A stretch of DNA of 64,000 bases from Escherichia coli (lineage in GTDB: Bacteria > Pseudomonadota > Gammaproteobacteria > Enterobacterales > Enterobacteriaceae): assembly GCF_050920415.1 (NCBI RefSeq), contig NZ_CP169309.1, one strand, 5' to 3'. Below are positions 17,000 through 33,102 of this stretch, in pieces. Numbering within the stretch: position 1 is the first letter of the stretch; each line of letters opens with the position of its first letter. The position numbers and the translations under genes were made by a program. The notes beneath the pieces were generated by a model. The model saw only the letters and a list, made by a program, of their open reading frames with translations, did not search any database and was not told where the DNA came from.

Positions 17000-17065
17000 T
17001 TTCCTCTCCAGTTCAGATTGCTGCGATATTAATCTTTCGTTTTGTTTCAGTTGATACTGCGTCAT

Positions 17066-17247
17066 GGTGAGATAAAAATAAAACGAAAGATAATAGTTTT
17101 CTGATCTGATTCACAAAAGAAACATAATGAAAGTCACTGAAACGAGAGTAGCTTGCGTCAATGGGCAAGGTGGGCTTGCATTTGCTCAATAGAAAGGCGT
17201 TAATAGACAAAACGAAATGAAACGAAAGTTTTACGAAAGGACTTACT
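17066..17247. promoter_or_regulatory. Divergent kbaZ / agaR promoter region with AgaR-type operator repeats
   Basis: Motifs AAAACGAAAGA, GAAACGAGAG, AAAACGAAATGAAACGAAAGTTTTACGAAAGG. Confidence 0.6.
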
Positions 17248-18057
17248 ATGAGTAATACCGACGCTTCAGGCGAGAAGCGAGTGACAGGCACCAGCGAGCG
17301 ACGAGAACAAATCATTCAGCGCCTGCGACAGCAAGGGAGTGTGCAGGTTAACGATCTGTCGGCATTGTATGGCGTATCTACTGTGACGATCCGCAACGAT
17401 CTGGCGTTTCTGGAAAAGCAGGGGATCGCTGTGCGGGCCTATGGCGGCGCGTTGATCTGCGATAGCACGACGCCGTCAGTCGAGCCATCAGTGGAAGATA
17501 AAAGCGCGCTGAACACTGCGATGAAACGCAGCGTTGCGAAAGCTGCCGTTGAGTTGATTCAGCCAGGTCATCGGGTGATCCTCGATTCCGGGACCACCAC
17601 TTTTGAGATTGCTCGTCTGATGCGCAAGCACACTGACGTAATTGCGATGACCAATGGTATGAACGTAGCCAATGCACTGCTGGAAGCAGAAGGCGTTGAA
17701 CTTCTTATGACCGGCGGGCATCTGCGGCGTCAGTCGCAATCTTTTTACGGCGATCAGGCTGAACAATCGCTACAAAATTACCACTTTGATATGCTTTTTC
17801 TCGGCGTAGATGCGATCGATCTGGAGCGCGGCGTCAGCACGCATAATGAAGATGAAGCCCGTTTAAACCGTCGGATGTGCGAAGTTGCGGAACGGATCAT
17901 TGTGGTCACCGATTCCAGTAAGTTCAACCGTTCCAGTTTACATAAGATCATTGATACTCAACGTATCGACATGATCATTGTTGATGAAGGCATTCCTGCG
18001 GATAGTCTGGAAGGACTGCGAAAGGCTGGGGTTGAAGTGATTCTGGTCGGGGAGTGA
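17248..18057 (+). CDS. agaR: DeoR-family transcriptional repressor AgaR
   Basis: 269-aa ORF with N-terminal HTH and DeoR C-terminal sugar-phosphate-binding domain. Confidence 0.9.
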
Positions 18058-18111
18058 GAAAGGGGGCCCGCTGGTCAACACCAATGTGTTCGGCGGGCAT
18101 TGTGAACACCA

Positions 18112-18576
18112 TCAATGGTTTTCTTCTGTCTCTTGGGTGAGGCTTTCCCAGCCGGCAGGAGGATGTCCTCTTTTTAACATTTTACTGAATACGGTATAGG
18201 CATCTGTTTTTTTACCGTAGGTGCGCAGCGTGTTTTCATCGTTCATCCATCCCAGAATGATGACTTTCTCTTTTTCACTGTAACGAAAGAAGAGACGATA
18301 GCGACCAGCACCAAATTTTACCCGTGACCAGTCTTTATTTTTCCCAGAGCCTAACGACTTGCCATGACGGAATGCCGGTGATGATGGATTGACCGTGATA
18401 TGCTCCTCAATCACTTTATGGACCACCGCCAATAACTTTGTGGCAGCTTTTCTCTGATAATTTTCAGGATCTTTTCCCTTTAATGCCTCGACTTCGGCAA
18501 CTAAAGCATCGTAGGTTTCCTGAAAACAGGGATGAGCATATAGCGCCCAACCATTAACCCTTTGTGGAAAATCCAT
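18112..18576 (-). CDS. yhaV: Toxin YhaV (ribosome-dependent mRNA interferase)
   Basis: 154-aa ORF immediately downstream of and 1-bp-overlapping prlF; sequence recognised as YhaV. Confidence 0.88.
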   Translation of the reverse strand: MDFPQRVNGWALYAHPCFQETYDALVAEVEALKGKDPENYQRKAATKLLAVVHKVIEEHITVNPSSPAFRHGKSLGSGKNKDWSRVKFGAGRYRLFFRYSEKEKVIILGWMNDENTLRTYGKKTDAYTVFSKMLKRGHPPAGWESLTQETEENH

Positions 18577-18911
18577 TATTCGTCGTCGCCAATCTCATCG
18601 TCAATGTTGACGTCCATGCCAGCGACAAGTTTCTTTCCTTGTTGAATGTCGAATGGACGAGTTTTTTGCGGGTTATTCTGGATATCTGCATCCAGAAAAC
18701 GCAAAAATGCATTCATAGTATGATCCTCCTGTTCATCTCCCAGTCGGCACATAAATACTTGCCCACCAGGCAGAATTTCGTAATGAATGCTGTCCAGGCC
18801 TGGCTTCAGTTTTAAGGCCTCACGCACTGGCGCGGGGATAGTTGTTTGTCCGCGTATCGTGACCTTTGATTCAGTGGTCAGTACAGCGTTAGAGCGAGCA
18901 TTAGCGGGCAT
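18576..18911 (-). CDS. prlF: Antitoxin PrlF (SohA), AbrB/SpoVT-like fold
   Basis: 111-aa ORF with acidic C-terminal tail (DDEIGDDE), upstream of yhaV. Confidence 0.88.
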   Translation of the reverse strand: MPANARSNAVLTTESKVTIRGQTTIPAPVREALKLKPGLDSIHYEILPGGQVFMCRLGDEQEDHTMNAFLRFLDADIQNNPQKTRPFDIQQGKKLVAGMDVNIDDEIGDDE

Positions 18912-18967
18912 TATTTACTGTCCTTTTACAGCCTGTTTTCTGCTCAAATTATAAGCTTGAACTAAGG

Positions 18968-18983
18968 TAATGCAAATGCATTA
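18968..18983. promoter_or_regulatory. Near-perfect inverted repeat TAATGCAAATGCATTA in the prlF promoter (candidate PrlF-YhaV operator)
   Basis: 16-nt palindrome (2 central mismatches) 57 bp upstream of the prlF start. Confidence 0.5.
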
Positions 18984-19007
18984 TTAATGGATGTGTGGAC
19001 TTTAAAC

Positions 19008-19037
19008 AATAAAAACATGGCACTAAGGCCATGTTTT
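19008..19037 (-). terminator. Rho-independent terminator downstream of garD
   Basis: Hairpin CATGGC-N6-GCCATG followed by a T-tract on the minus strand. Confidence 0.6.
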
Positions 19038-19059
19038 GCGAGGGACGTTCCAAAAGAAA

Positions 19060-20631
19060 TCAAGTCACCGGTGCCGGGTTAAACACCGCCAGCTGGTTAT
19101 GCAGTCCCCATTGATCTGAGAAGGTTTTCTTCTTCCCGCTGGCGACGTCGAGAATAAAATGGAACAATTTCCAGCCCACCTCTTCAATAGTTTCTTCGCC
19201 GGTAGCGATGGTGCCCGCATTAATATCCATTAAATCAAACCAGCGGTTCGCCAGCTCGGTGCGGGTCGCCATTTTAATGACGGGTACCGCCATCAGGCCG
19301 TACGGCGTACCACGGCCGGTCGTAAACACTTGCACGGTAATCCCCGAAGCCACCTGTTGCGTGCCACAGACAAAATCGCTGGCTGGCGTCGCAGCGTAAA
19401 TTAATCCGCGTTTAGTCGGGCGTTGACCGGGCGACAGCACTTCAACAATTGCACTTTTACCCGATTTAGCAATGGAGCCGAGCGCTTTCTCCACCACATT
19501 TGCCAGACCGCCTTTCTTGTTGCCCGGCGAAGGGTTGGCGCTGCGGTCGGTTTTTCCCATATTGAGATAGTTATCGTACCACTCCATCTCCTCCAGCAGC
19601 CGTTTGCCGACCTCTTCGTTCACTGCGCGCGGCGTCAGCAGATGGATCGCGTCACGCACTTCTGTGACTTCCGAGAACATCACCGTTGCACCGCAGCGCA
19701 CCAGTAGATCAGATGCATAACCCACGGCTGGATTTGCCGTTACGCCAGAAAACGCATCGCTGCCACCGCACTGCATGCCGACAACCAGTTCTGAAGCCGG
19801 ACAGGTTTCTCGCTGACGTTGATTCAGTTTTTGTAGATGGCGTTCGGCGACCTGCAAAATATCCTCGACCATGGACTGAAAACCGACATGCTTTTCATCC
19901 TGCAAACTGACAATGCTGGCGCTTTCTACTGGAATAGCTTGCACATCATCCGTTCCAGTCAGCAGGCGTTCAGGCTGCAACTTTTCACAACCCAGACCAA
20001 TCACCATTACTTCGCCGCCAAAGTTAGGGTTCAGCGAAATATTGTGAATGGTACGAATAGGCACAACTGCCGCCGGTGCGTTAATCGCCACGCCACAACC
20101 GTACAAATGATTCAGCCCCACCACGCCATCGACGTTCGGGTATTTCGGTAGCAGATCGCGTTCAATGATTTTTACTACATAGTCCACCACGCCTGCCACA
20201 CAGTGGACGCTGGTGGTGATGCCGAGCAGGTTTTTGGTGCCCACGCTGCCATCGGCATTGCGATAGCCCTCAAAGGTGTATCCTTCCAGTGGCGGTAAGG
20301 GGGCCGGGACTTTAGTTGCCAGTGGCAGCGTGTGTAACGGTGGCGCTTCCGGTAGTACAACCATTGATTCGTCGATCCAGCTTCCGCGTGGGATTGCGCG
20401 CACGGCGTAACCAATCACTTCACCATAACGAATAATTTCACCATTAGCCGGAATGTCCAGCAATGCGACTTTATGCCCCTGGGGAATATGTTCAATTAAT
20501 TCCAGCCCATCCGGAAAACGCGTTCCTGCTTTCAGGCCATTATCATTAACAATAATTGCCACATTATCTGTGTCGTGAACTTTTATATAAAACGCAGTTG
20601 GCGTTTCTTGTCTGATTTCGATGTTGGCCAT
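19060..20631 (-). CDS. garD: Galactarate dehydratase GarD
   Basis: 523-aa ORF, SAF-domain plus altronate-dehydratase-like sequence; divergent from garP. Confidence 0.9.
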
Positions 20632-31893: not shown

Positions 31894-33102
31894 ATGAATG
31901 AATTTCCGGTTGTTTTGGTTATTAACTGTGGTTCGTCTTCGATTAAGTTTTCCGTGCTCGATGCCAGCGACTGTGAAGTATTAATGTCAGGTATTGCCGA
32001 CGGTATTAACTCGGAAAATGCATTCTTATCCGTAAATGGGGGAGAGCCAGCACCGCTGGCTCACCACAGCTACGAAGGTGCATTGAAGGCAATTGCATTT
32101 GAACTGGAAAAACGGAATTTAAATGACAGTGTGGCCTTAATCGGCCACCGTATCGCCCACGGCGGCAGTATTTTTACCGAGTCTGCCATTATCACCGATG
32201 AAGTCATTAATAATATCCGTCGCGTTTCTCCACTGGCACCCCTGCATAATTACGCCAATTTAAGTGGTATTGAATCGGCGCAGCAATTATTCCCGGGCGT
32301 AACTCAGGTGGCGGTATTTGATACCAGTTTCCACCAGACGATGGCGCCGGAAGCTTATTTATACGGCCTGCCGTGGAAATATTATGAAGAGTTAGGTGTA
32401 CGCCGTTATGGTTTCCACGGCACGTCGCACCGCTACGTTTCCCAGCGCGCGCATTCTTTGCTGAATCTGGCGGAAGATGACTCCGGCCTGGTCGTGGCGC
32501 ATCTTGGCAATGGCGCGTCAATCTGCGCAGTTCGCAACGGTCAGAGTGTTGACACTTCAATGGGAATGACGCCGCTGGAAGGCTTGATGATGGGTACCCG
32601 CAGTGGTGATGTCGACTTCGGGGCGATGTCCTGGGTCGCCAGCCAAACCAACCAGAGCCTGGGTGACCTGGAACGCGTAGTGAATAAAGAGTCGGGATTA
32701 TTAGGTATTTCCGGTCTTTCTTCGGATTTACGTGTTCTGGAAAAAGCCTGGCATGAAGGTCACGAACGCGCGCAACTGGCAATTAAAACCTTTGTTCACC
32801 GAATTGCCCGTCATATTGCCGGACACGCAGCCTCATTACGTCGCCTGGATGGAATTATATTCACCGGCGGAATAGGAGAAAATTCAAGTTTAATTCGTCG
32901 TTTGGTCATGGAGCATTTGGCTGTATTAGGCGTAGAGATTGATACAGAAATGAATAACCGCTCTAACTCCTTTGGTGAGCGAATTGTTTCTAGTGAAAAT
33001 GCGCGTGTCATTTGCGCCGTTATTCCGACTAACGAAGAAAAAATGATTGCTTTGGATGCCATTCATTTAGGCAAAGTTAACGCGCCCGCAGAATTTGCAT
33101 AA
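31894..33102 (+). CDS. tdcD: Propionate kinase TdcD (acetate/propionate kinase family)
   Basis: ORF 31882..33102 trimmed to [16 protein letters not shown]... Confidence 0.9.

Follow-up and report, generated by a model that had tools for sequence, protein, structure and literature searches.

The chromosomal prlF-yhaV toxin-antitoxin operon of Escherichia coli and the probable autoregulatory operator in its promoter

Between agaR and garD in Escherichia coli lie two small, overlapping genes preceded by a short inverted repeat, and the locus raises the question of what the pair encodes and whether the repeat is the site through which its products control their own expression. The DNA analysed is a stretch of 64,000 nucleotides from contig NZ_CP169309.1 (assembly GCF_050920415.1), here called the window. 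The region is the chromosomal prlF-yhaV type II toxin-antitoxin operon, and the palindrome very probably serves as its autoregulatory operator. The system is already known: the module, the control it exerts on its own expression and the palindrome bound by the complex in the promoter have been in the literature since 2007, the primary study of the K-12 prlF(sohA)-yhaV system being Schmidt et al. 2007 (J Mol Biol 372:894; PMID 17706670). The gain here is that the coordinates of operator, promoter and terminator are cleanly annotated (Table 1).

Gene identity and overlap

The yhaV product matches Pfam PF11663 (Toxin_YhaV) at 4e-53 with 179.5 bits against a cut-off of 35, and PrlF matches both PF15937 (PrlF_antitoxin; 4e-41, 139.6 bits, cut-off 32) and the NCBIfam equivalog PRK09974 (167.6 bits, cut-off 125). 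In addition, the PrlF of the window shares 96–98% identity with E. coli database clusters named PrlF, and the toxin gene of the YhaV family lies directly downstream of prlF on the same strand, a pairing that recurs in homologous loci. The first-pass annotation, which had named a prlF-yhaV type II toxin-antitoxin module with a one-base gene overlap, is thus borne out on the first point by Pfam, NCBIfam and RefSeq annotation and on the second by direct reading of the sequence: the prlF stop codon TAA occupies 18578..18576, the yhaV ATG occupies 18576..18574, and the minus strand reads ...GAA TAATG GAT. For the K-12 proteins, growth arrest by the toxin and its neutralisation by the antitoxin through complex formation have been reported (PMC7781912, PMC3021852), and YhaV has been placed among the ribosome-dependent RelE-like RNases (PMC11980606).

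In K-12, prlF(sohA)-yhaV occupies the corresponding locus with the same genes. Comparison of the window with a K-12-type locus (L031, O16:H48) gave 96.7% identity over 3 kb, with identical palindrome, -35 and -10 elements, and the differences are allelic only: PrlF of the window has Asp88 for Asn88, and a few bases before the start codon differ. These 1.3 kb, with the four gene names as RefSeq annotates them, occur in 5359 of 5426 complete E. coli genomes. A PrlF homologue was absent from the phage collection searched.

Table 1. Features of the prlF-yhaV locus (positions in the window)
Feature	Position	Strand	Description
agaR	17248..18057	+	converges on yhaV
yhaV, toxin gene	18112..18576	-	154 aa; RelE-superfamily ribonuclease family YhaV; ORF, Pfam, RefSeq annotation of identical DNA
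TAATG junction	18574..18578	-	A at 18576 common to the prlF stop TAA and the yhaV ATG
prlF (sohA), antitoxin and autorepressor gene	18576..18911	-	111 aa; ORF, Pfam, NCBIfam
Shine-Dalgarno-like AAGGA	18921..18925	-	9 nt before the prlF ATG; kept in Escherichia loci
-10 hexamer TATAAT of the putative prlF promoter	18948..18953	-	perfect match
Probable operator ("PrlF box") TAATGCA-AA-TGCATTA	18968..18983		core AATGCA-N2-TGCATT at 18969..18982
-35-like hexamer TTTGCA	18971..18976	-	inside the promoter-proximal arm of the palindrome
garD intrinsic terminator	19012..19037	-	10-bp stem, 6-nt loop, T-run; terminator scan
garD	19060..20631	-	upstream neighbour of prlF

Sequence comparison gives only a weak sign of an AbrB/MazE-type N-terminus in PrlF. 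PrlF scores 26.4 bits over residues 15–38 against the TIGR01439 AbrB-domain model, below the cut-off of 28.3, and 17.5 bits against Pfam MazE_antitoxin, below the cut-off of 24.7; its top three PDB profile matches are all AbrB-family regulators, at residues 15–39 and with weak E-values of 0.5–0.8. No solved relative of PrlF or YhaV was detectable by sequence, and an AlphaFold model of PrlF built on an 11-sequence alignment had a mean pLDDT of 44.6, too poor for fold comparison.

The one-base overlap suggests that translation of yhaV may be coupled to that of prlF. A TAATG or TGATG junction is also present in Escherichia, Cedecea and Salmonella and in L023 and L026, and gaps of 7–25 nt stand in place of the overlap in Photorhabdus, L024 and the plasmid homologues; the overlap is confined to the close clade. 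Separately, a promoter-like TTGACG-18-AATAAT (10/12 matches) lies on the minus strand at 18575..18604, within the 3' end of prlF and ending at the yhaV start codon, and it could be an internal yhaV promoter or a mere chance match.

The promoter palindrome and its conservation

In minus-strand order, the intergenic region 18912..19059 holds the garD terminator, the palindrome, TATAAT, AAGGA and the prlF ATG. The RNA fold of the terminator has an energy of -15.7 kcal/mol (z-score -2.0), and this element separates garD transcription from the prlF promoter. In a consensus scan, TTTGCA, a 17-nt spacer and TATAAT gave 10 of 12 matches, the sole 10/12 sigma-70-like site between the garD terminator and prlF, and this is the putative prlF promoter. 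The palindrome, TAATGCAAATGCATTA, has 7-nt arms that are 100% complementary around a non-symmetric 2-nt centre and reads TAATGCA-TT-TGCATTA on the minus strand (18983..18968). It had been described beforehand as a 16-nt inverted repeat within the prlF promoter and a candidate autoregulatory operator: the first description holds, with fully complementary arms and overlap with the -35 element, and the second is supported by the promoter overlap, by co-conservation of the box with prlF and by a review that reports binding of the PrlF-YhaV complex to a palindromic sequence of the prlF promoter (PMC7781912). No other substantial palindrome lies between the garD terminator and prlF, and this one is therefore taken to be the published binding site, in all likelihood correctly. 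A full-text literature search for the box sequence gave nothing relevant.

The palindrome on its own is not significant. Counting perfect inverted repeats whose 7-nt arms are separated by no more than 4 nt, the window holds 19, whereas first-order Markov simulations give 22.6 ± 6.4. Its significance derives from the overlap with the promoter and the conservation across unrelated loci, not from the palindrome alone. There is no second exact box in the window; a one-mismatch match, AAGGCAATTGCATT, at 32086..32099 lies inside a 406-aa ORF and is probably due to chance, and two or more one-mismatch matches arise in 10 of 100 shuffles. The hexamer TAATGC occurs twice more in a 10-nt direct repeat spanning the prlF start codon (18898..18913), giving four copies in 86 nt. 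These extra copies were rejected as operator elements, being unenriched in the window (43 observed, 44 expected) and variable even within Escherichia, where CAATGC is found in L002 and L003, TCATGC in L004 and the K-12-type locus, and TTATGC in L005.

Homologous loci were collected by a PrlF-alignment scan of species-representative genomes, database homologue look-ups and a plasmid search. In all of them bar three, the box AATGCA-N2-TGCATT is present with 0–2 mismatches upstream of a prlF homologue; the exceptions are two remote matches (Dehalococcoidia, Thermoanaerobaculia) and a decayed remnant in E. coli (L008). The homologues with a box span 43–99% protein identity in unrelated flanking DNA. 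Besides Escherichia species, they are found in Pseudocitrobacter (76% protein identity), Enterobacter (68%), Salmonella on chromosome and plasmid (63%), Cedecea davisae (57%, with a perfect 20-nt palindrome), several metagenome contigs (51–60%), Citrobacter and Pantoea plasmids (45–46%), and ten species of Photorhabdus (43–48%, one locus being matched over a short stretch only). The distance from the box to the prlF start downstream of it is 44–81 nt in the window, L001–L007, L009–L016, L019–L026 and L030; in the box-array plasmids L028 and L029 the box precedes the annotated start by about 185–330 nt. The exact core AATGCANNTGCATT is present in 21 of the 31 fetched loci, each time upstream of a prlF homologue, and nowhere else in the approximately 130 kb of these loci. 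Within E. coli, 5164 of the 5426 genomes searched carry the 36 nt around the box, at least 4983 of these at 99% identity or more, with the box unchanged. Among 18 boxes from 13 loci, each of the 12 core positions holds 1.5–2 bits of information; the two bases flanking the core on each side (R-Y ... R-Y) hold about 1 bit, and beyond these two the value drops to roughly 0–0.5 bits.

This conservation might be thought to reflect a -35 region only, kept for RNA polymerase, with the palindromic symmetry incidental, and in Enterobacteriaceae loci the proximal arm does coincide with a -35-like hexamer; moreover, palindromes of this size occur at chance frequency. However, conservation is equally strong in the distal arm, at 1.5–2 bits per position, and this arm is upstream of the -35 and of no use to the polymerase; moreover, TTTGCA is a mediocre -35 that selection for polymerase binding would not keep fixed. 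The relation of box to promoter also shifts between loci. Promoter-like hexamers overlap the box in 12 of 12 homologous loci scanned, as they do in the window, but the register differs: in single-box Enterobacteriaceae the proximal arm gives TTTGCA or TTGCAT, 16–18 nt before TATAAT, TATACT or TATATT, and an equivalent -10 at equal distance from the box is found in L003, L005, L006, L007, L020, L023 and L026, whereas the Photorhabdus box is flanked by another -35-like hexamer, TTGCCA, and the -10-like TACACT. The varying register speaks for an operator rather than a promoter element. Two to three tandem boxes in plasmid and metagenome relatives, which no promoter element requires, point the same way, and preservation for the polymerase alone is considered highly improbable.

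A second possibility is that the palindrome is, or is also, the site of a host regulator foreign to the module, for instance an NsrR-type half-site. The sole ground for this is resemblance: on the minus strand, ATAATGCATTT resembles the NsrR half-site AAnATGCATTT. Against it, wherever prlF homologues occur in several genera, whether on plasmids or at chromosomal sites with unrelated surroundings, the box is found with them, a pattern that fits a regulator encoded by the module itself. Further, the single one-mismatch match in the window, which has no second exact box, falls in a coding region, and the literature search found no link of NsrR with prlF or sohA. A foreign host regulator is given very little credence. 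Less probable still, to the point of being nearly negligible, is that the inverted repeat acts as an RNA hairpin in a transcript. Only self-complementarity speaks for it. The repeat falls between the garD terminator and the predicted prlF transcription start, expected at about 18941, a 2-nt loop closing a 7-bp stem is unfavourable on steric grounds, and Rfam gave no match in 17000..20000 at E ≤ 1. Compensatory changes between the arms were not seen in the 18 boxes either, because the arms are invariant.

Autoregulation, box number and related systems

With the palindrome read as the operator of the module's own complex, regulation may be pictured as follows. PrlF would dimerise through its AbrB/MazE-like N-terminal domain, the two-fold symmetry of the dimer reading the AATGCA/TGCATT half-sites, and YhaV would bind the acidic C-terminal part of PrlF to give PrlF2-YhaV4, acting as a co-repressor that strengthens DNA binding. 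The bound complex would cover the -35 arm, RNA polymerase would be excluded and the operon would repress itself; occlusion of the -35 by a complex at 18968..18983 is what the geometry of the site suggests. At the TAATG overlap, ribosomes finishing prlF would restart on yhaV, which would tie toxin synthesis to antitoxin synthesis. Were PrlF lost, for instance by proteolysis, the promoter would be de-repressed and free YhaV would cleave mRNA on the ribosome. Four points of this scheme come from published work: the stoichiometry of the complex, its attachment to the palindrome in the promoter, the part of YhaV as co-repressor and its activity as an RNase. It has been reported that PrlF-YhaV forms a PrlF2-YhaV4 hexamer and that the complex binds a palindromic sequence of the prlF promoter (review PMC7781912), that PrlF is a DNA-binding protein controlling prlF-yhaV expression (review PMC5408214), and that prlF-yhaV is possibly among the modules whose toxin serves as co-repressor (review PMC8138530); a prlF frameshift allele raises prlF-yhaV expression (PMC7686311). 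The literature also places two hexamers on the DNA, whereas the E. coli promoter has one box, a difference that counts against the proposed operator.

The number of boxes varies within the family. The E. coli prlF promoter has a single box, as have the chromosomal copies of Salmonella and Photorhabdus, in each case overlapping the core promoter. Three boxes with an 18-nt period are found on the Citrobacter freundii plasmid p51929 (L028, 1244..1293) and two with the same period on a Pantoea ananatis plasmid (L029, 1150..1181), the last box abutting TATACT in both; in a metagenome contig (L024, 1682..1717) and in L025, two boxes recur with a 22-nt period. It is tentatively proposed, as a possibility with the odds against it, that the family-wide operator is a PrlF box of the form RY-AATGCA-N2-TGCATT-RY whose copy number is a tuned variable. 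If two PrlF2-YhaV4 complexes must cooperate on the DNA, promoters with one box and those with several would show different cooperativity, and they would be de-repressed at different toxin:antitoxin ratios. The comparative box-number architecture may be previously undescribed, and a family-wide operator consensus could aid the annotation of PrlF-YhaV modules and the design of binding experiments.

Among known systems, mazEF is alike in what has been reported of the antitoxin: its N-terminal DNA-binding domain is described as AbrB/MazE-like (PMC7781912, PMC5408214), and it binds palindromic DNA at the module's own promoter, more strongly in the presence of the toxin. However, YhaV is a RelE-superfamily ribonuclease rather than a protein of the MazF/CcdB fold, the operator sequence is unrelated, and the complex reported is PrlF2-YhaV4 as against MazF2-MazE2-MazF2. 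In vapBC and fitAB the toxin increases affinity for an operator to which the antitoxin binds poorly by itself, and prlF-yhaV is possibly regulated alike (PMC8138530); the proteins of these systems have unrelated folds, and their operators usually comprise several inverted repeats, compared with the one in the E. coli prlF promoter.

Mobility, loss and allelic variation

The module had also been described in the first-pass annotation as inserted between the aga and gar operons. Its position holds, with agaR and garD as the flanks, and insertion as an event is supported indirectly: the GC content of the module is 44–47% as against 50–58% in the flanking genes, PrlF-family genes occur on 293 plasmids, homologues are found in other contexts (beside phage antirepressor genes in Salmonella, beside HlyIII/YgfZ, beside genes for an MFS transporter and a HAD hydrolase, or on plasmids), and E. 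albertii shares a recombination-like block with the window, described below. A precise empty site was not found, including in E. coli genomes without an intact module. One module-less E. coli (EC23HZZ201; H35, L027), in which IS1A stands next to garD and a deletion runs through the aga region to yraI, was rejected as an empty site, the gap being an IS1-associated deletion that reaches yraI. In another strain, SCPM-O-B-8794 (L008), what remains of prlF is decayed, its left operator arm is degenerate, and a deletion reaching rsmI lies alongside; the two genomes represent two independent losses of the module.

Exchange between species is suggested by Escherichia albertii NBRC 107761 (L001), which differs from the window by 3 mismatches in the 833 nt of 18230..19062, a block comprising most of yhaV, all of prlF, the promoter and the garD terminator; its flanks (agaR, garD DNA) are 82–93% identical to the window. 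This looks like a cassette recently exchanged between E. albertii and the E. coli lineage of the window. In Salmonella enterica (L020, L021, L022 and L030), prlF-yhaV lies directly downstream of genes for a phage antirepressor (ANT/KilAC) and a Rha-family regulator, and one copy is on a 92.7-kb plasmid, an arrangement that suggests carriage on a phage-like plasmid.

In Enterobacter sp. BIGb0383 (L006, at about 2836), the prlF homologue and its box are intact, but the toxin reading frame ends right after its start codon (ATG TAA) and an ORF of YhaV length is missing, leaving an orphan antitoxin with its operator; the same scan found L009, L015 and L016 also without a full-length toxin ORF.

Finally, prlF contains a repeat prone to slippage. 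At 18640..18653 on the minus strand (prlF nt 259–272), the window has an imperfect tandem 7-mer, TTCGACA-TTCAACA, and K-type alleles (PFNIQQ; E. coli/Shigella database variants) have a perfect double TTCAACA. PrlF database variants of 130–151 aa from E. coli and Shigella sonnei repeat the peptide FNIQHST 2–5 times and are expansions of the 7-nt unit that mostly frameshift the C-terminus. In Maeda et al. 2020, every lab-evolved prlF mutant carried this TTCAACA duplication, and these mutants showed raised prlF-yhaV expression and resistance to beta-lactams and D-valine (PMC7686311). The Asp88 allele of the window breaks the perfect 7-nt repeat of the K-12 type and should slip less.
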